A stretch of 64,000 bases of DNA from Bacilli bacterium (lineage in GTDB: Bacteria; Bacillota_I; Bacilli_A; RF39; UBA660). The notes beneath the pieces are model-generated. The model worked only from the letters and a program-made list of their open reading frames with translations. It was not told the DNA's origin and searched no databases. Position numbers and translations under genes: made by a program. This document shows, piece by piece, positions 4,641-51,402 of this stretch (position 1 is the stretch's first letter; every line of letters starts with the position of its first letter). The DNA is taken from contig JAFOMI010000040.1 in NCBI GenBank assembly GCA_017418945.1, positions 32-64,031 on the forward strand. Reading direction: 5' to 3'.

Positions 4641-4715
4641 GCAAGTGTAGTACAATGGTTAGTACGAGGCCTTGCCAAGGCTTAGACGAGAGTTCGATTC
4701 TCTTCACTTGCTCCA
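4641..4715 (+). tRNA. tRNA-Gly (anticodon GCC)
   Basis: Cloverleaf folded by hand: acceptor gcaagtg/cacttgc, D-arm gtac-aatggtta-gtac, anticodon stem aggcc/ggctt with loop ttGCCaa, T-arm gagag-ttcgatt-ctctt, discriminator T and encoded CCA. Confidence 0.85.
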
Positions 4716-16086: not shown

Positions 16087-17508
16087 ATGGCAAATGAAAA
16101 GATAACTAAAAGAGATGTAGATTTTGCAAAATGGTATACAGATGTAGTTAAAGCAGCTCATCTAGCAGATTATTCATCTGTAAAAGGATGTATAGTTATT
16201 GAGCCAAATGGCTATGCAATTTGGGAAAAAATGCAAAGTATATTAGATAAAGAATTTAAAAAATTAGGACATGTTAATGTACAAATGCCTCTTCTAATTC
16301 CAGAATCTATGTTAAATAAAGAAAAAGAATTAGTAGAAGGATTTTCACCAGAAGTTGCGTGGGTAACAGTTGGAGGAAATAAAACATTAGAAGATAGATT
16401 ATGTATTAGACCAACATCTGAAACTTTATTTTGTGATTATTATAAAGATCATATTAGTTCATATAAAGATTTACCAAAATTATATAATCAATGGTGTAAT
16501 GTACTTAGATGGGAAAAAGAAACAAGACCATTTTTAAGAAGTAGAGAATTCTTATGGCAAGAAGGTCATACAATTCATTCAACAAAAGAAGAAGCTATTA
16601 AAGAAACAAATCAAATGATGGATGTATATTATAATTTCTTTCATAATTATTTAGCAATACCATCTATTAGAGGTATGAAAACAGAAAAAGAAAAATTTTC
16701 AGGAGCAGAATTTACTTTAACTAATGAAGCTTTAATGTATAATGGAGTTGCTCTTCAAGCAGGTACTTCACATTATTTTGGTCAAAAATTTTCAGAAGCT
16801 TATGATGTGAAATTTACAAATAAAAATAATGAACTTGAATATGTATATCAAACTTCATGGGGAACTACAACAAGAATGATAGGAGCATTAATAATGGTTC
16901 ATTCAGATGATTATGGTCTTGTATTACCACCTAAAATTGCGCCAAAACAAGTTGTAATTGTACCAATTGGTGATAATGAAGAAGTTAATAATTTATCAAA
17001 TAAATTTAAAGAAGAGTTAAATAATAATGATATAATCACATATATTGATGATTCAGAAAAATCTCCAGGATTTAAATTTGCTGAAGCTGAAGTAAATGGT
17101 ATTCCTGTTAGAATAGAAGTTGGTAAAAGAGATTTAGAAAAAGGGATTATTACAGTAGCAAGAAGAGATACTAGAGAAAAAATAGAAATTAGCAAAGATA
17201 CTGATATAGTTTCATTTGTTAAAGAATTATTAGATACTATTCAAAATGATATGCTTGAAAAAGCAACAAAAAGAAGAGATGAATTAACTTTTAAAGCTGA
17301 TAATTTAGATGATATGAAAAATATTCTAGAAACACAACCAGGTTTTATTCATGCAAATTGGTGTGGAGATAAAGCATGTGAAGAAAAAATAAAGGAAATA
17401 AAAGGATGCAAATCAAGATGTATAGTTCCAGATGAAAATGTTAGCGGTAAATGTGTATGCTGCTCTAAAGAAGCTAAATATCATGTTATATGGGGATTAC
17501 AATATTAA
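16087..17508 (+). CDS. proS: Prolyl-tRNA synthetase (archaeal/eukaryotic-type, with C-terminal Zn-binding domain)
   Basis: Class II aaRS motifs (FLRSREFLWQEGHT, GTSHYFGQ) and a C-terminal Cys cluster. 473 aa is typical of type-II ProRS. Confidence 0.92.
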   Translation: MANEKITKRDVDFAKWYTDVVKAAHLADYSSVKGCIVIEPNGYAIWEKMQSILDKEFKKLGHVNVQMPLLIPESMLNKEKELVEGFSPEVAWVTVGGNKTLEDRLCIRPTSETLFCDYYKDHISSYKDLPKLYNQWCNVLRWEKETRPFLRSREFLWQEGHTIHSTKEEAIKETNQMMDVYYNFFHNYLAIPSIRGMKTEKEKFSGAEFTLTNEALMYNGVALQAGTSHYFGQKFSEAYDVKFTNKNNELEYVYQTSWGTTTRMIGALIMVHSDDYGLVLPPKIAPKQVVIVPIGDNEEVNNLSNKFKEELNNNDIITYIDDSEKSPGFKFAEAEVNGIPVRIEVGKRDLEKGIITVARRDTREKIEISKDTDIVSFVKELLDTIQNDMLEKATKRRDELTFKADNLDDMKNILETQPGFIHANWCGDKACEEKIKEIKGCKSRCIVPDENVSGKCVCCSKEAKYHVIWGLQY

Positions 17509-17867
17509 TGAATAAATTAATTAAAGACATAAAAAATAATTTAATTGTAATAATATTTATAATTATATATTTTGCATTAACAAAAATAATATTTGGTTAT
17601 TCATGCATTTTTAGAATACTATTTCATATTAAGTGCCCGGGTTGTGGTTTAACAAGAGCGCTTAAATCATTATTAAAGGGCGATATAACTAAGGCAATGC
17701 ATTATAATTATTCAATTATATTTTGGTTAATATTATTGATTATATTTATTATTAATAGATATATAAAACCATTAAAAGTAAATGTATTAGTATTATTTAT
17801 TATTACTGTTTTAATAACTTTAATTAGATATATATTAATTGTATTTTTTAATGAACCTATTTTTTAG
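17508..17867 (+). CDS. DUF2752-family membrane protein
   Basis: The CPGCGLTRA motif is diagnostic of DUF2752. Start is ambiguous between 17490 and 17508. Confidence 0.65.
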   Translation: MNKLIKDIKNNLIVIIFIIIYFALTKIIFGYSCIFRILFHIKCPGCGLTRALKSLLKGDITKAMHYNYSIIFWLILLIIFIINRYIKPLKVNVLVLFIITVLITLIRYILIVFFNEPIF

Positions 17868-17925
17868 GTTTATTTTTTTTTATTATTTGGTATAATAATA
17901 ATTAAGTAATAGAGGAGGAATATAT

Positions 17926-18027
17926 ATGGAAAAGAAATGTAATTGTGATAAAACTTGTAAATGTGGATGTAATGAAGGAAAGAAATGTAATTGTAAAGAT
18001 AAGAAATGTAAATGCAATAAAAAATAA
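17926..18027 (+). CDS. 33-aa Cys/Lys-rich metallothionein-like peptide (not in the ORF track)
   Basis: MEKKCNCDKTCKCGCNEGKKCNCKDKKCKCNKK, with 9 Cys in 33 residues as CxC/CxxxC repeats. Near-perfect RBS AGAGGAGGA 6 nt upstream. TAA stop, then the RBS of the next gene. Confidence 0.6.
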   Translation: MEKKCNCDKTCKCGCNEGKKCNCKDKKCKCNKK

Positions 18028-18041
18028 TTATTGGAGGAATT

Positions 18042-18434
18042 ATGGAAGAAGTATTAAAGTTTTTAAAAGAAGCAGGAGTTTACTATCTTGCTACAGTAGA
18101 AGATAATAAACCTAAAGTTAGACCATTTGGAACAATTGAAATATATGATAATCATTTATATATACAAACAGGTATGAAAAAAAATGTATTTAAACAAATA
18201 GAAAAGAATAACAATGTAGAAATATGTGCATTTAAAGATGGCAAATGGATAAGATTATCTGGTGAACTTTTAGTAGATGAAAGAATAGAAGCAAAAAAAC
18301 ATATGCTTGATAATTATCCTGAATTAAGAGGTATGTATAGTGAAGATGATCTTAATACTAAAGTATTATATTTTAAAAATGGACATGCTGTAATATCATC
18401 ATTTACAGATGAAGATATAGTTATAGATTTTTAG
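18042..18434 (+). CDS. Pyridoxamine 5'-phosphate oxidase-like FMN-binding split-barrel protein
   Basis: YYLATVEDNKPKVRPFG....YIQTG pattern typical of PNPOx-like/general stress protein 26 family. Confidence 0.65.
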   Translation: MEEVLKFLKEAGVYYLATVEDNKPKVRPFGTIEIYDNHLYIQTGMKKNVFKQIEKNNNVEICAFKDGKWIRLSGELLVDERIEAKKHMLDNYPELRGMYSEDDLNTKVLYFKNGHAVISSFTDEDIVIDF

Positions 18435-18442
18435 GAGGTAAT

Positions 18443-18841
18443 ATGAAAAAGGAAAAATCTTGTGGAATAATAGTGTTTGATAATGATAAAGTACTTGTTG
18501 TAAAGCATCTTGATGGGCATTATGGATTTCCAAAAGGACATGTTGAAAACAACGAAACAGAAGAAGAAACTGCAATTAGAGAAGTAAAAGAAGAAACTAA
18601 TTGTGATGCTAAAATTATCCCAGGCTTTAGAGAAGTTATAACTTATAGTCCAAAACAAAATGTTATAAAAGATGTAGTATATTTTATTGGTAAACCTATT
18701 TCAATTGAAATAAAACCACAAGAATCAGAAATAAGTAATGTTAAATTCTTATCATTTGAAGATATTTTAAATGTTATTACTTTTTCTGATGAAAAGGAAT
18801 TATTTATTGAAGCATTAAATTATTATAAGACTATTAATTAG
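18443..18841 (+). CDS. NUDIX hydrolase
   Basis: Nudix box GHYGFPKGHVENNETEEETAIREVKEETN (G-x5-E-x7-REUxEExGU). Confidence 0.85.
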   Translation: MKKEKSCGIIVFDNDKVLVVKHLDGHYGFPKGHVENNETEEETAIREVKEETNCDAKIIPGFREVITYSPKQNVIKDVVYFIGKPISIEIKPQESEISNVKFLSFEDILNVITFSDEKELFIEALNYYKTIN

Positions 18842-18922
18842 TCTTTTTTTGTTGCATTTTTTTTAAAATGGTGTATAATGAATATGAAAATGATTTTCAA
18901 ATTAAGGAGTGAGGTATATTAT

Positions 18923-19765
18923 ATGTTTGATTTATTTATGGATGCACTTATTGATAGTGTTAAGTTATTACCATATTTATTAGTTACATTTTTATTCTTA
19001 GAATTAGTAGAACATAAATTTGGTGATAAGAATGAAAAAGTTCTTTCAAAGAATAAAAAATTTGGTCCTTTATTAGGAGGTTTATTCGGAGCATTCCCAC
19101 AATGTGGATTTAGTGCAATGGCTTCTAATTTATTCTCAAGTAAAGTTATTACTTTAGGAACATTAGTCGCAGTATTTTTATCAACTAGTGATGAAATGAT
19201 TCCAGTAATGCTTGGTGAAAAAATGGACTTTGTGTTAATGCTTAGAATAGTATTATTTAAAGTATTAGTGGGTATAACTGTTGGTTATATTATAGATTTT
19301 ATATATAGAAGAAAAATAGTTAAACCAGTAGAAAGTATTCATCATTTATGTGAAGAAGAACATTGTAGTTGTAAAAAGAATGGAATTATTCTTTCAAGTA
19401 TTATGCATACAATTAAAACTGGATTATTTGTTTTAATTGCAAATATATTAATTAATTTCTTAATATTTAAAATAGGTGAAGAAAATTTATCAAAAATTCT
19501 TTTAAGTAAAAATATTTGGACTTATTTTGCATGTTCATTACTTGGTTTAATTCCAAACTGCGCACCTAGTGTTATTATGACTGAATTATATTTATCTAAC
19601 TTTATTACTATAGGTAATTTGATTGGTGGTTTATTAACAGGTTCTGGTTTAGGTATTTTATTATTATTTAAATCAAATAAAAATTTAAAGGAAAATATAA
19701 GTGTTTTATCTATCATTTACATAATAGGTGTATTAGTAGGAATACTTGTAGATTTATTTATATAA
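18923..19765 (+). CDS. Polytopic membrane protein (permease-like, related to the downstream gene)
   Basis: About 8 TM segments. Motif FPQCGFS and a Cys/His loop HHLCEEEHCSCKK. Start at the RBS-supported MFDLFMD. Confidence 0.6.
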   Translation: MFDLFMDALIDSVKLLPYLLVTFLFLELVEHKFGDKNEKVLSKNKKFGPLLGGLFGAFPQCGFSAMASNLFSSKVITLGTLVAVFLSTSDEMIPVMLGEKMDFVLMLRIVLFKVLVGITVGYIIDFIYRRKIVKPVESIHHLCEEEHCSCKKNGIILSSIMHTIKTGLFVLIANILINFLIFKIGEENLSKILLSKNIWTYFACSLLGLIPNCAPSVIMTELYLSNFITIGNLIGGLLTGSGLGILLLFKSNKNLKENISVLSIIYIIGVLVGILVDLFI

Positions 19766-19811
19766 GATTGAATTATCAATCTTTTTTTTATATAATAATT
19801 AGGGTGATAAT

Positions 19812-20699
19812 ATGGATATAATTAAAAATATTTCGGTTATTTTTATGTCAATTTTTTTTGAAAGTTTACCTTTTTTGTTGCTTGGTTCTTTTATTTCAGC
19901 AATTATAGAAACCTATATTTCAAACGAGAAAATAATTAAATTAATACCAAGGAATAAGTTTTTAGGTTCTTTAGTAGGTGTTTTATTAGGATTCTTTTTA
20001 CCAGCATGTGATTGCGCAGTTATTCCTATATCTAAAAGATTAATAAAGAAAAAAGTGCCAATAAATGTATCTATCAGTTTTATGCTTGCATCTCCAATAA
20101 TTAATCCTGTTGTTTTATTATCAACTTATTATGCATTTTATAAAACAGAGCCGGAATTATTTTGGTATAGATTAATTTATGGAGTAATTATATCTTTAGT
20201 AATAGGTACTATTATGGGATTTTTATATAATAAAAAAGAAGTAATAAATGAAACTTCTTTAATGGAATCAACTTGTTGTCATCATGATCATCATGAAAAT
20301 AAAATAATAGGAGTTTTTAAACATACAGCATTAGATTTATTTGATGTTATTAAATATCTGATGTTTGGAGCTTTAATTGCAAGTATTATTCAAGTACTAG
20401 TACCAAGAAGTATTATTTCTATATTTAATAATAGTAATACTTTATCAATTATTATTTTAATGCTTTTTGCATATTTAATATCTTTATGTTCAACATCTGA
20501 TTCTTTTGTTGGTAAATCTTTACTTAGTACTTTTACTAAAGGTTCTATATTGGCTTATCTCCTTCTTGGACCTATGATAGATATTAAGAATACTATAGTT
20601 TTATTAGGAAATTATAATAAAAAATTTGTAGCAACATTAATTATATTAATTTTTATTGTTATATTTATATTTACAAGATTGGCGGCGAATATATTATGA
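19812..20699 (+). CDS. Predicted permease (DUF318/ArsP_1-type, CxC motif) with a His-rich loop
   Basis: FLPACDCAVIP motif typical of the PF03773-type permeases. CCHHDHHENK loop suggests a metal-binding loop. Confidence 0.6.
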   Translation: MDIIKNISVIFMSIFFESLPFLLLGSFISAIIETYISNEKIIKLIPRNKFLGSLVGVLLGFFLPACDCAVIPISKRLIKKKVPINVSISFMLASPIINPVVLLSTYYAFYKTEPELFWYRLIYGVIISLVIGTIMGFLYNKKEVINETSLMESTCCHHDHHENKIIGVFKHTALDLFDVIKYLMFGALIASIIQVLVPRSIISIFNNSNTLSIIILMLFAYLISLCSTSDSFVGKSLLSTFTKGSILAYLLLGPMIDIKNTIVLLGNYNKKFVATLIILIFIVIFIFTRLAANIL

Positions 20700-21487
20700 G
20701 GAAGAAATATTTAGGATTAATATGTTTATTGTATGCTTTTATAATTTTATATGTTTATTTAAATAATATATTAAAAAATTTTTTAGCACCAAGAATGCAT
20801 ATATATTTATTACTAGCTATGTTTATATTAGTAATTATGTCTTTTATTATATTTTTTAGTGATTGCTTTCATTATAAATTTAAAGTATTAGATTTAATTC
20901 TTTTATTACCATTATTAATGATTATAACTGCGCAAGATGGGAAATTATCAATAGAGTCTTCTAATAATAGAATATCTACTTTTAAACCTAAAAAAATTGT
21001 AAAAGTTAAAATAAAAAAAGTTGATAATAAAACTGATAATTCTAAATTGAATTTTGATAATCCTGATTTTGTAGTTGAAGATGAAAATTATATAGATTTA
21101 GTAAATTATTTATCTTCTAATGAAAATGCAAAAAATTATGTAGGAAAAACAATTAAAGTAAAAGGATTTACAGTAGGTAATAATAATTATTTACCAAATG
21201 GATTATATGAACTTGGAAAATATCTTGTTACTTGTTGTGCAGCAGATTCTAGTTTTAAAGGATTTATTTTAAATTCTAATAATCATATTATTGAAGGAAG
21301 TACTTGGTACGAAGTAGAAGGATATTTAGATATATCTAAAGATTTTAAAGGAAAAGATATTATTGTAATAACTGTTGTTAATATAAAAGAAATAGATGAA
21401 AAGAGTGAAGATGAATATATTTATCCTTGTTATGAATATGGTGATAGAAATTGCGAAAAAACAAAAAAATATAATTTAAAATATTAG
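20696..21487 (+). CDS. TIGR03943-family membrane protein (partner of the DUF318 permease)
   Basis: N-terminal TM helices and a conserved CC motif (YLVTCCAADSSFKGF). ATGA start/stop overlap with the permease gene suggests translational coupling. Confidence 0.55.
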   Translation: MRKKYLGLICLLYAFIILYVYLNNILKNFLAPRMHIYLLLAMFILVIMSFIIFFSDCFHYKFKVLDLILLLPLLMIITAQDGKLSIESSNNRISTFKPKKIVKVKIKKVDNKTDNSKLNFDNPDFVVEDENYIDLVNYLSSNENAKNYVGKTIKVKGFTVGNNNYLPNGLYELGKYLVTCCAADSSFKGFILNSNNHIIEGSTWYEVEGYLDISKDFKGKDIIVITVVNIKEIDEKSEDEYIYPCYEYGDRNCEKTKKYNLKY

Positions 21488-21526
21488 ATATATGATATAA
21501 TTATATCTATAATAAAGGAGTAAAAA

Positions 21527-22177
21527 ATGAAAAAGAAAAGAAATATTATTGTATCTGTATTAATGACAATTATTTCATTAGTATATGTTTATTTAGTTAA
21601 AAATTTTGATGTAAGTGCGATAGGTCCAAAGAATTCAAAAGTAGGTTTTTCTACTATTAATTCTATTTTTATTAAACATGTAGGAAGACATATGGAAATA
21701 TATAAATTAACTGAAGTACTTGGTTATGTAATATTATTATTAGTATTGTTATATGGTTTAGTTGGATTTATAGAATTAATTAAGAGAAAAAGTATATTTA
21801 AGATTGATAGAGAAATAATATGCGTTGGAATACTTTATGTAATGATGATTAGTGTATATGTTTTCTTTGAAAAATTTATTATTAATTATAGACCAGTATT
21901 AATAGATGGTGTGTTAGAAGCATCTTTCCCATCAAGTCACACTATGCTTTCACTTTGCACTATTATTAGTTCTTTGATAATATCAAAAAAATATATAAAA
22001 GATAATAAATTTTATAATGTTACTGTATTTATATCAATGTTATTACTTACATTAGTATTTGTAGGAAGAACAATTTCAGGTGTTCATTATTTATCTGATA
22101 TAGTTGGTGGAGTTTTAATATCAATTACTTTATTAAGTTATTTTTATACTATTTTAAGATGGAAAAAACAAGATTAA
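21527..22177 (+). CDS. PAP2-family membrane phosphatase
   Basis: PAP2 motifs SFPSSHT and SGVHYLSDIVGG. Confidence 0.8.
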   Translation: MKKKRNIIVSVLMTIISLVYVYLVKNFDVSAIGPKNSKVGFSTINSIFIKHVGRHMEIYKLTEVLGYVILLLVLLYGLVGFIELIKRKSIFKIDREIICVGILYVMMISVYVFFEKFIINYRPVLIDGVLEASFPSSHTMLSLCTIISSLIISKKYIKDNKFYNVTVFISMLLLTLVFVGRTISGVHYLSDIVGGVLISITLLSYFYTILRWKKQD

Positions 22178-22251
22178 TCTTGTTTTTTTGTTTATAAATA
22201 AATGCTTGAAAAGATAGGAATTGGTGTTATAATGTAATTAAAGGTGATCAT

Positions 22252-22797
22252 ATGAAGTATATTTATAGGGTCTCAAATATGGAAAATTATGATGAGACTA
22301 GTCCATATTTCTCACTATTCTTTGTAAAATTTAATATGGATAATTCTGTCAAAAATACATTTGATGAAAGCAAACAACTAAAGCATTATTTTTTAAGAGC
22401 TAGTGATGCTTATATTTATAATGTATTATCTTTAAAAGATAGTTCTCAATCTAAGAGAATAAATGTTTTTTCTGTTAGTGATTTATTACTTGAAGATTGT
22501 TATGGTAAAACTATTTATAATGATGATGGAGAATTAAGTGAAGTAGATGAAGTTGCAATTCCAAGAGAAAAAATACTTAAATATCTAGGTAATAAAAATA
22601 GTGTTTCAGACGGAATGGTAGATATGTTAAAAAAAGAAGAGTTTGAAAGATTTTATTTAGGATACATAGATTTAGAAAAAAATGAAATGGTATATTTTAA
22701 TGAATATTTAAGAGATAATAACGAAGATTATAGCGTTAATCTTTTGCTTGACAGTTTAAAACCAAAGACAAAAACTTATACGAATAAAGAGCAGTAA
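22252..22797 (+). CDS. Hypothetical protein (181 aa)
   Basis: ORF with a GGTGA RBS. No motif recognised. Confidence 0.5.
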   Translation: MKYIYRVSNMENYDETSPYFSLFFVKFNMDNSVKNTFDESKQLKHYFLRASDAYIYNVLSLKDSSQSKRINVFSVSDLLLEDCYGKTIYNDDGELSEVDEVAIPREKILKYLGNKNSVSDGMVDMLKKEEFERFYLGYIDLEKNEMVYFNEYLRDNNEDYSVNLLLDSLKPKTKTYTNKEQ

Positions 22798-49314: not shown

Positions 49315-51402
49315 ATGATAGAAAACTTAAACGAAAGACAATTAGAGGCCGTACAAAACATAGATGGACCAATGCTTGTACTTGCAGGTGCAGGTTCTGG
49401 TAAAACAAGAGTTTTGACAACAAAAGTTATGTACCTTTTAGAACATAGAGATATTTCTCCAAGAAATATTTTAGCGATAACTTTTACTAATAAAGCTGCT
49501 AAAGAAATGAAGGAAAGAATTTATAATTTAATTGGTAGAGAAGCTTTTTTAATACAAATATCAACATTCCATTCATTTGGATTAAAATTATTAAAAGAAA
49601 ATTATGAATTACTTGGTTATGATAGCAATTTTACTATAATAGATGCTGATGATTCATTAACAATGATTAAGAAAATAATGAAAGAATTAGATATAGATTC
49701 TAATAAATATAATTATAGAGCAATTAGATCTAGTATTTCAGATAATAAAAATGAAATGGTTTCAGTAAAAGAATATGAAAAATTTGTTTATACTGATTAT
49801 GATGAAGTAGTATATAAAGTATATGATGAATATGAAAAAAGTTTAAAAAGAAGTAATGCAATAGATTTTGATGATTTACTTTTATTACCAATAAAGTTAT
49901 TTAATGAACATGAAGATGTTTTAATTAAATATCAAGATTTATATAAATATGTATTTATAGATGAGTATCAAGATACTAATAAACCTCAATATTTATTAAG
50001 TAAAATGATAAGTGGAAAATACAAGAATATTACTGTTGTTGGAGATAATGACCAAGCAATATTTACTTGGAGAGGTGCAGATTATAAAAATATATTAAAT
50101 TTTGAAAAAGATTATCCTAATGCGAAAGTAGTTATATTAGATGAAAATTATCGTTCTACTAAAACTATTTTAAAAGCAGCGAATAATGTTATTAAGAATA
50201 ATAAAATTAGAAAAGAAAAGAATTTATGGACTAATAATGAAGAGGGTAATTTAATAAAATATTATAAAGCATATGATGAAAAAGATGAATCTAGTTTTGT
50301 TGTTAAAGAAACAAAAAAATTAATTAGTGAAGGAATAAGTCCTGATGAAATATGTGTTTTATATAGAGCAAATGCTCAAAGTAGAAATGTTGAAGAAGCA
50401 TTCTTGCAAAATAATATTTCATATAAAATAGTTGGTTCTTATGCATTCTATAATAGAAAAGAAATTAAAGATTTAATTGCGTATTTAAAACTAATTCATA
50501 ATGAAAAAGATGATGTTTCTTTACTTAGAGTTATTAATTATCCAAAAAGAGGAATAGGTCAAAAAACAATAGAAAATTTAAGTATAGTAGGAAGAAATGA
50601 AAATAAGTCTTTATATGAATCAATTACGTCTAATAAAGAATTAGAATTTAAAAATATAATAGAAGCATTAAAAAAAGAAAAAGATTCAATGCCTTTAGTA
50701 GATTTTATTGAACTTGTTTTAAATAAAACTGGTATTAAAGAAAGTCTTAAAAGTGAAAAAACTCTAGAAGCAGATATTAGACTTGAAAACTTAGAGGAAT
50801 TTAAGTCAATTGCGCACAATGCTGAAGAAGTTAGTGGAATAGTAACATTAGAAGATTTTTTAGATGAAATTAGTTTAGTAACTGATGCATCTGAAAATCA
50901 AAGTGATAATGAAGAAAAGGTTACTTTAATGACTATGCATGCAGTTAAGGGACTTGAATTTGATTATGTATTTGTAGTAGGAGTAGAAGAAGGATTATTT
51001 CCTCATTTAAATTCTATGAATAGTGAAGAAGAACTTGAAGAAGAAAGAAGACTTTGTTATGTTGCTATTACAAGAGCTAGAAAGAAACTATATATAATTA
51101 ATTCTAGAAGTAGATTATTGTATGGTAAAGTAACAAGTAATATACCTAGTAGATTTATATCTGAAATAGGTGATGATTTATTAGATCAAGAAAGAAAAGA
51201 TAATGTTTTCTCTAAGAAAATTAATAGAGAAGATATGATTACTAATAATGATTTAAAAAGAGGAGATTTAATAAGACACGATAAATATGGAAATGGTGTT
51301 GTTATTGATATAGATGGAAAAATTGCAACTATTTCATTTACAAAAGAAGGCGTTAAGAAATTATTAAAAGATCATAAAGCAATAAAGAAAGTGAGTGAGT
51401 AA
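49315..51402 (+). CDS. pcrA: ATP-dependent DNA helicase PcrA (UvrD family)
   Basis: LNERQLEAV...GPMLVLAGAGSGKTRVLT (motif I), DEYQDTN (motif II), VGDNDQAIFTWRGA, TMHAVKGLEFDYVFV. Start at the ATG after the GGAGGA RBS. Confidence 0.93.
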   Translation: MIENLNERQLEAVQNIDGPMLVLAGAGSGKTRVLTTKVMYLLEHRDISPRNILAITFTNKAAKEMKERIYNLIGREAFLIQISTFHSFGLKLLKENYELLGYDSNFTIIDADDSLTMIKKIMKELDIDSNKYNYRAIRSSISDNKNEMVSVKEYEKFVYTDYDEVVYKVYDEYEKSLKRSNAIDFDDLLLLPIKLFNEHEDVLIKYQDLYKYVFIDEYQDTNKPQYLLSKMISGKYKNITVVGDNDQAIFTWRGADYKNILNFEKDYPNAKVVILDENYRSTKTILKAANNVIKNNKIRKEKNLWTNNEEGNLIKYYKAYDEKDESSFVVKETKKLISEGISPDEICVLYRANAQSRNVEEAFLQNNISYKIVGSYAFYNRKEIKDLIAYLKLIHNEKDDVSLLRVINYPKRGIGQKTIENLSIVGRNENKSLYESITSNKELEFKNIIEALKKEKDSMPLVDFIELVLNKTGIKESLKSEKTLEADIRLENLEEFKSIAHNAEEVSGIVTLEDFLDEISLVTDASENQSDNEEKVTLMTMHAVKGLEFDYVFVVGVEEGLFPHLNSMNSEEELEEERRLCYVAITRARKKLYIINSRSRLLYGKVTSNIPSRFISEIGDDLLDQERKDNVFSKKINREDMITNNDLKRGDLIRHDKYGNGVVIDIDGKIATISFTKEGVKKLLKDHKAIKKVSE

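Follow-up and report, generated by a model that had tools for sequence, protein, structure and literature searches.

A putative metallothionein-like peptide family of gut bacteria, identified from a 33-residue open reading frame in a Bacilli bacterium contig

The stretch of DNA analyzed here, referred to as the window, comprises 64,000 nucleotides of contig JAFOMI010000040.1 from a Bacilli bacterium. At positions 17926–18027 of its + strand lies an open reading frame (ORF), with ATG at 17926 and a TAA stop whose last base is 18027, for the 33-residue peptide MEKKCNCDKTCKCGCNEGKKCNCKDKKCKCNKK. Judged from its sequence and that of its relatives, this peptide is probably a metallothionein (MT)-like metal binder, likely a cytosolic metallothionein, and we place the probability of this reading at about 0.7. 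The peptide belongs to a family built on a 19-residue cysteine module that is absent from protein catalogues, is under protein-level selection, and is repeatedly linked to genes for copper and zinc homeostasis. An initial annotation of the window had described the ORF as metallothionein-like, with nine cysteines in 33 residues arranged as CxC and CxxxC repeats with interspersed lysines. Translation confirms the composition, and the comparative evidence laid out below supports the functional label. Metal binding, its stoichiometry, and co-transcription with the neighboring genes are what we infer from that evidence.

A cysteine-rich module absent from protein catalogues

The cysteines of the peptide stand at positions 5, 7, 11, 13, 15, 21, 23, 28, and 30 (9/33 = 27%), giving the layout CxC-x3-CxCxC-x5-CxC-x4-CxC. 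There are 12 lysines and no aromatic or histidine residues. No other short ORF in the window exceeds 20% cysteine. The core motif of the family, a 19-residue unit, is C-x-C-x3-C-x-C-G-C-x-E-G-K-x-C-x-C. Ten positions are invariant in the family alignments, namely seven cysteines, two glycines, and a lysine, and the window peptide has all of them (C5, C7, C11, C13, G14, C15, G18, K19, C21, and C23). It departs from its relatives at variable positions only, with Asn for Gln at module position 12 (Asn in 18 of 82 modules) and Asn for Thr at position 18 (2 of 82).

An exhaustive HMMER search with the peptide against 1.84 billion representative sequences returned five hits, all from its own family (four relatives). 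A subsequent profile search yielded 127 small cysteine-rich proteins, and a scan of GTDB species genomes yielded 80 loci. Stand-alone proteins of 30–100 amino acids with one to four modules account for 33 of these 80 loci. Stand-alone homologues have a median length of 52.5 amino acids (n = 42), the median cysteine content of the family is 27%, and aromatic residues occur in only 4 of the 42. One relative is acidic (MEEKKCNCGPDCKCGCQEGKECTCQDENCKCGCQEEKDK).

Family members come nearly all from gut or rumen metagenome-assembled genomes (MAGs), and none comes from a cultured isolate. The host labels are Bacilli, “Tenericutes” (RF39-like), Erysipelotrichaceae, Clostridia, Alphaproteobacteria, Akkermansia, Gastranaerophilales, and Elusimicrobia, with rarer occurrences in a few Planctomycetes, Parachlamydiaceae, Myxococcota, and Propioniciclava and on some low-GC contigs binned as Bacteroidales. 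The exact peptide has been gene-called on at least 24 metagenome contigs with the same synteny.

The initial annotation had also called the ORF unannotated and poorly catalogued, and the module family is indeed absent from protein catalogues. We saw no GenBank annotation of the ORF, which adjoins the pyridoxamine-phosphate-oxidase-like (PNPOx-like) protein MBQ1496253.1 of a “Bacilli bacterium” MAG, and the exact peptide is known only from ENA and Logan gene calls, where it is unnamed. Neither Pfam nor NCBIfam has a model for the module, either in the peptide (E ≤ 1) or in its multi-module relatives, including an 8-fold array. The family profile has no match among PDB sequences at E ≤ 10. The AF2 model of the peptide (pLDDT 73) contains no secondary structure, and a Foldseek search with it found no fold match in the PDB. 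The motif string was not found in a corpus of about 8 million papers, cluster look-ups gave no name for family members in any source, and a scan of phage contigs gave no confirmed copy of the module.

Protein-level selection on the module

The ORF at 17926–18027 is almost certainly a genuine gene. This assessment follows from more than 120 homologues under protein-level selection and not from the openness of the frame; five of the six frames across the coding sequence lack stops owing to composition, so an open frame is no evidence for a gene here. The initial annotation had made its proposal depend on conservation at the protein level, and such conservation is found. Among 82 distinct module DNAs, which span at least eight phylum-level groups, mean pS is 0.89, with synonymous sites near saturation, and mean pN is 0.16. 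The seven cysteine columns are invariant and use TGT and TGC about equally; two glycine columns are invariant yet use all four codons; and the glutamate is invariant as well. At two related loci (L016 and L017; L- and P-numbers are our handles for homologous loci and family members), an identical 35-residue protein is encoded with several synonymous differences while the flanks have diverged.

The stand-alone homologues also have the signals of expressed genes. A Shine-Dalgarno (SD) core lies at –16 to –4 in 38 of 42, and a perfect-stem stem-loop with a T-run terminator lies just past the stop codon in 22 of 42. The peptide is presumably translated in vivo.

Linkage to copper and zinc homeostasis genes

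The neighbors of the stand-alone genes were clustered and then annotated, and they link the family repeatedly to copper and zinc homeostasis genes. A CsoR-family repressor gene (PF02583) ends 10–11 nt upstream of the peptide gene at four loci (L034, L044, L052, and L073). The adjacent CsoR proteins have Cys/His/Cys at +25/+29 spacing, which is the fingerprint of Cu(I)-sensing CsoR, and their best NCBIfam match is the copper sensor RicR. A fifth locus, L102, is a canonical csoR-copZ-copA operon in which CopZ has the module at its N-terminus. CsoR-family genes typically occur in one or two copies per genome, so adjacency by chance in three to four species, plus the CopZ fusion, is very unlikely as judged from copy number.

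In four species, a conserved ATACCCCC motif (…ATACCCCC[TG]NATTTAC…) precedes the csoR-peptide operon by 30–70 nt, at about 1690–1715 in L034 and at equivalent sites in L044, L052, and L073. This motif is a candidate half-site of a CsoR operator and is without the G-tract second half of classical CsoR boxes.

Cation diffusion facilitator (CDF) pumps (PF01545 with ZT_dimer) adjoin module genes at L027, L052, L077, and the P0070 locus. An ArsP_2 gene lies one to three genes downstream of the peptide gene in the window, in a sister species (L011–L013, where a FUR-family gene precedes ArsP_2), and in the unrelated context of L016/L017. The initial annotation had read the permeases downstream of the ORF as a hint of a metal-handling neighborhood. 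The recurrence of ArsP_2 in an unrelated context strengthens this suggestion, as do the csoR operons, the CDF pumps, and the CopZ fusion found elsewhere. Taken over the family, Cu(I) appears to be the best-supported metal. Given the CDF and ArsP neighbors, zinc or cadmium is possible.

Fusions of the module to other proteins

The module is also found within longer proteins, a feature not foreseen in the initial annotation. The fusion partners, confirmed by Pfam, are as follows.

GrpE: module at the N-terminus; at least 10 loci (L026, L032, L035, L036, L041, L042, L055, L063, L091, L093)
SIMPL/DUF541 membrane proteins of gut Alphaproteobacteria: N-terminus, before the signal-anchor, one to eight tandem modules; L089 and others
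MIP aquaporin: C-terminal tail, predicted cytoplasmic; L069 2344–3204 and L080 3066–3926
HisRS: C-terminus, with extra His-rich repeats; L085 and L086, 3663–5234
LysRS of a Thermoguttaceae MAG: insertion; L030 4086–5690
MinD-like ATPase: N-terminal region; L039 4956–6095
Jag/KhpB: C-terminal region; L079
DUF805: N-terminal region; L025
DsbA/ScsC-like (thioredoxin-fold) protein: N-terminal region; L054
DUF1207 (outer-membrane-type) of a Parachlamydiaceae MAG: near the N-terminus, after the signal peptide; L040 4821–6101
HMA/CopZ domain: N-terminus; L102 (an actinobacterium) and P0122

The GrpE fusions are found in species represented by Bacilli and Clostridia MAGs and contain one to several modules; in L026 (1849–2535), for example, the GrpE domain occupies residues 65–228. 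Truncated reading frames in L043 and L094 resemble GrpE fusions. To our knowledge, no metal-binding extension of GrpE has been described. The SIMPL fusions are encoded at L089 (4926–6077), L088 (5001–6029), L024, L029, L038, L045, L049, L050, L064, L065, L098, and L101. The units of the 8-copy array in L089 are near-identical, which suggests a recent expansion.

Fused copies lie on predicted cytoplasmic ends, before the SIMPL signal-anchor and in the C-terminal tail of the aquaporin, a placement compatible with reduced thiols. It is possible, if on balance doubtful, that the module is a horizontally spread, portable metal-thiolate domain that couples proteostasis, translation, or membrane transport to copper and zinc status, or that provides a distributed metal buffer against host- or diet-imposed metal stress in uncultivated, small-genome gut anaerobes; it would then do more than detoxify. 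Farm-animal diets are heavily supplemented with copper and zinc, and the gut and rumen habitat of the family is relevant on this account.

Proposed function and alternative explanations

As a metallothionein, the reduced, unstructured apo-peptide would wrap its nine thiolates around a small metal-thiolate cluster, the negative charge of which would be offset by the lysines. Fungal copper metallothioneins of the Neurospora crassa/Agaricus type have seven cysteines in about 25 residues and the mammalian MT β-domain has nine, and these units hold about six Cu(I) or three M(II) per domain. By analogy with such 7- to 9-Cys domains, the peptide might hold about three Zn(II)/Cd(II) or four to six Cu(I), and in this way it could buffer or sequester excess soft metal in the cytosol. 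The gene would be transcribed from an extended –10 promoter of its own and has a strong SD. Given these signals and the lack of a terminator, it probably heads a peptide-PNPOx-NUDIX unit, behind which lie three putative metal(loid) permeases. At its length the module can be made by chemical synthesis, so that a direct test of the metal-binding claim is possible.

Several observations weigh against a metallothionein role. Genes for CsoR, Fur, CDF, and glutathione peroxidase are absent from the 64-kb window, and no Fur/Zur/PerR- or CsoR-like palindrome was seen upstream of the ORF, where the inverted repeats are A/T runs. With no such sensor gene in the window and no operator found upstream of this copy, its metal-responsive control is unsupported. 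No metal gene lies near several homologues (the P0016, P0026, and P0069 loci). A few members have signal peptides (L061 4917–5084, P0119, and L040), and exported thiols would be oxidised. The fusions to GrpE, HisRS, LysRS, MinD, and Jag are not explained by simple detoxification. The high lysine and asparagine content may in part reflect a genome of about 26% GC rather than function. Finally, the glutathione peroxidase and PNPOx neighbors of some members hint at a redox role.

This last point leads to the alternative that the peptide is a thiol redox buffer or scavenger, a sacrificial or regenerable sink for oxidants, electrophiles, and persulfides in glutathione-less anaerobes, with any metal binding incidental. 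A glutathione peroxidase gene lies within one to three genes of the module gene at L022, L031, and L077; a PNPOx-like flavoprotein gene follows it in the window, in the sister species (L011–L013), and in another lineage, L021; and one fusion partner, that of L054, has a DsbA-like thioredoxin fold. In addition, the CsoR family includes persulfide sensors (CstR), which we count in favor of a redox role. However, the CsoR adjacent to the peptide genes has the Cys-His-Cys copper fingerprint and not the His-less CstR pattern, and both the CopZ fusion in csoR-copZ-copA and the CDF neighbors point to metals. The invariant Gly, Glu, Gly, and Lys and the fixed cysteine spacing suggest a defined cluster geometry, for which a generic thiol sink would have no need. 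We consider a primarily redox function unlikely.

The fusions raise the further question of whether the module acts as a zinc-cluster mini-domain with a structural or regulatory role, binding one or two structural metal ions and serving protein contacts or the metal-dependent regulation of its partners, in which case the free 33-mer would be a regulator or adaptor. Its attachment to unrelated housekeeping proteins (GrpE, HisRS, LysRS, the MinD-like ATPase, Jag/KhpB, and aquaporin) agrees with such a role, as does the moderately confident AF2 model obtained without metal. Against it, the number of modules varies from one to eight in tandem (L088, L089, and L084), which is typical of metal stores that scale in capacity and not of docking domains; neither predicted secondary structure nor a fold match is present; and the linkage to CsoR, CopZ-CopA, and CDF speaks against it too. 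On this balance a zinc mini-domain seems rather improbable.

It is far less probable that the peptide is the precursor of a modified or secreted cysteine-rich peptide, such as a ranthipeptide/SCIFF-like ribosomally synthesized and posttranslationally modified peptide (RiPP) or a defensin-like antimicrobial. The peptide is short, rich in cysteine, and encoded by a member of the Firmicutes, L016 and L017 have a radical SAM gene about 3 kb upstream, and the signal peptides of L061 and P0119 could be taken to fit export. Nevertheless, no NCBIfam (E ≤ 1, including SCIFF TIGR03973) or Pfam model of any RiPP precursor matches it, and the window locus is without a maturase, protease, or exporter and has no radical SAM gene among the neighbors. 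There is no leader/core architecture, the module beginning at residue 5, and chaperones and enzymes of the cytosol carry this module as a fusion.

The window locus and its neighboring genes

The features of the metallothionein-like peptide gene and its immediate surroundings are as follows.

17888–17896, + strand: TGGTATAAT, a promoter-like extended –10 box that lies 30 nt ahead of the ATG
17911–17919, + strand: Shine-Dalgarno sequence AGAGGAGGA, with GGAGG at 17914–17918 and a 7-nt spacer to the ATG
17926–18027, + strand: coding sequence, consisting of the 7-Cys core module (residues 5–23) and a C-terminal CxC
18033–18037, + strand: GGAGG ribosome-binding site (RBS) of the next gene, whose ATG lies at 18042, 14 nt past the peptide stop

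The near-ideal RBS that the initial annotation had placed before the ORF, and the RBS of the following gene behind it, are thus both present. The TGGTATAAT box presumably acts as a promoter. The same box, as TTTGGTATAAT, is retained upstream of the orthologue in L011–L013, and this conservation of the extended –10 box is the one basis for the promoter assignment; the –35 box is poor, and a promoter scan gave matches at chance level in this AT-rich DNA. TGnTATAAT (TGNTATAAT) sites number 14 in the window, 13 of them on the + (gene) strand, and the total is not above chance. Several lie directly upstream of gene starts (21493 before 21527 and 22225 before 22252), and further examples are found at 157, 6547, and 17888. 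A strain-level indel of about 30 bp affects the 3′ end of the upstream DUF2752 gene (17840–17885; the window compared with L003, L007, L008, and L010), giving a product of 119 or 123 residues and a gap to the peptide gene of 58 or 16 nt. The TGGTATAAT box and the SD are intact despite this indel.

No terminator-like site was found in 17300–22400, and none within 80 nt of the peptide stop. Rfam has no element, riboswitch, or leader at the locus, and no attenuator-like structure was seen there. Three imperfect 25-nt direct repeats (80–84% identical) lie within the ORF at 17929–18022, each encoding (E/G/D)KKC(N/K)C. Together with the variable module number in the family, these repeats fit growth of the peptide by internal duplication.

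That the ORF is non-coding, either a chance frame in AT-rich DNA or a Cys-codon-rich leader regulating PNPOx-NUDIX, is extremely improbable: the uninformative openness of five of six frames, the distance of 14 nt from its stop to the next gene without an intervening terminator, and the missing GenBank annotation would allow it, but purifying codon-level selection across the 82 sequences and at least eight phylum-level groups, conservation of the non-Cys residues (Gly, Glu, Gly, and Lys), the monocistronic arrangement of most homologues with a terminator of their own, the occurrence of the module inside long bona fide proteins, and the lack of any Rfam element or attenuator-like structure at the locus all argue against it.

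The neighboring genes in the window are as follows.

17508–17867, + strand: the upstream neighbor, a DUF2752 membrane protein (PF10825, E = 6.5e-18) containing a CPGCG motif
18042–18434, + strand: PNPOx-like FMN-binding split-barrel protein (PF01243, E = 4.7e-9)
18443–18841, + strand: NUDIX hydrolase, 8 nt past the PNPOx gene (PF00293, E = 6.7e-18)
18878–19765, + strand: ArsP_2 putative 10-TM (transmembrane) metal(loid) exporter with a Cys/His loop (PF11449, NF037962, E = 2e-83); gene callers place its start at 18923 rather than 18878
19812–20699, + strand: ArsP_1 permease with a CCHHDHH loop (PF03773, E = 4e-64)
20696–21487, + strand: DUF1980/TIGR03943 putative permease subunit, overlapping ArsP_1 by 4 nt (PF21537, TIGR03943)

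As in the window, a DUF2752 gene precedes the peptide gene in L011, L023, and L028, and its position may be synteny by descent. The PNPOx-like gene is probably co-transcribed with the peptide gene. The Cys/His loops seen in the permease translations are HHLCEEEHCSCKK and TCCHHDHHE, and the ArsP_1 protein (19812–20699) matches the Cu/Zn efflux family SO_0444 at a score below threshold.

The genes after NUDIX differ between the window (18841–21487) and the sister species (L011–L013, 6906–8705). In the sister species, NUDIX and ArsP_2 are separated by genes for a 162-residue protein without a Pfam match and for a FUR-family regulator, and ArsP_1/DUF1980 is missing, whereas the window lineage is without the 162-residue protein and the FUR gene and has ArsP_1/DUF1980 after ArsP_2. 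In effect, the two lineages have different metal-related cargo exchanged at a single syntenic site.

Elsewhere in the window, an Rfam match above the gathering score was obtained at 51012–51110 on the + strand (RF03531, n00280, a C. difficile sRNA included in a helicase gene), and a tRNA gene lies at 4641–4712 on the + strand. Neither the MetRS gene (14204) nor the ProRS gene (16087) has a T-box reported by Rfam upstream of it.

Comparison with known metallothioneins

By sequence, the peptide falls within the operational definition of a metallothionein: with 33 residues it is smaller than about 10 kDa, its high cysteine content lies in CxC/CxxC-type motifs, and few, here zero, of its residues are aromatic. 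Only two families of bacterial metallothioneins have had their function examined, SmtA/BmtA and MymT (PMC7387436, PMC7558416).

The functionally closest known system, by analogy, is MymT of M. tuberculosis, a 4.9-kDa copper metallothionein encoded by a previously non-annotated ORF and reported to bind up to six Cu(I) (PMC7558416, PMC7387436). Both MymT and, as we propose, the window peptide are tiny, unannotated, cysteine-rich, and cytosolic. The resemblance extends to gene context in the family, in that stand-alone members lie directly behind a CsoR-family gene with RicR as its best NCBIfam match. MymT is itself controlled by RicR, a CsoR-family repressor. However, no similarity to MymT was detected in the HMMER search of the peptide against the 1.84 billion representatives, which is not a pairwise comparison. 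The cysteine pattern differs, and MymT uses histidine, of which the peptide has none. In addition, MymT is confined to mycobacteria, whereas the module family occurs in many phyla of gut and rumen MAGs and is modular and fused.

SmtA/BmtA (PF02069, MT family 14) are likewise small bacterial cysteine-rich proteins that sequester metal and for which fusions have precedents. One such precedent is a thioredoxin-MT chimera (PMC13578184), which we considered as a possible relative and rejected: it carries an SmtA-type domain and not the CxCx3CxCGCxEGKxCxC module. SmtA has about 56 residues and about 16% cysteine, with histidine ligands, aromatic residues, and a zinc-finger-like fold, whereas the peptide, at 27% cysteine, has neither histidine nor aromatic residues, and secondary structure is not predicted for it. 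The regulator of SmtA is SmtB/ArsR and not CsoR. PF02069 matches neither the peptide at E ≤ 1 nor its multi-module relatives, and with no histidine and no fold match, membership in SmtA/BmtA is ruled out.

The fungal and mammalian metallothioneins are similar in having seven (as in the core) or nine (as in the peptide) cysteines, a predominance of CxC, lysines beside cysteines, and no aromatic residues. They are eukaryotic, however; the module has no Pfam metallothionein match, and the invariant G-C-x-E-G-K core is found only in the module family. The resemblance is compositional or convergent, with no evidence of homology. Cytosolic storage of many Cu(I) by cysteine thiolates, as proposed for the peptide, has another bacterial precedent in Csp3 (PMC7558416). 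The Csp proteins, in contrast, are pre-folded four-helix bundles of about 120 residues that are lined with cysteines and form tetramers; the peptide has 33 residues, no helices in its AF2 model, and no Pfam match.

Taken together, the sequence comparisons support the view that the module family may constitute a third bacterial MT-type family, non-homologous to the known ones. If true, a third unrelated family alongside SmtA/BmtA and MymT would widen the view of bacterial soft-metal buffering, and the case illustrates how entire conserved families can go unseen when their ORFs are shorter than the cut-offs used in annotation.

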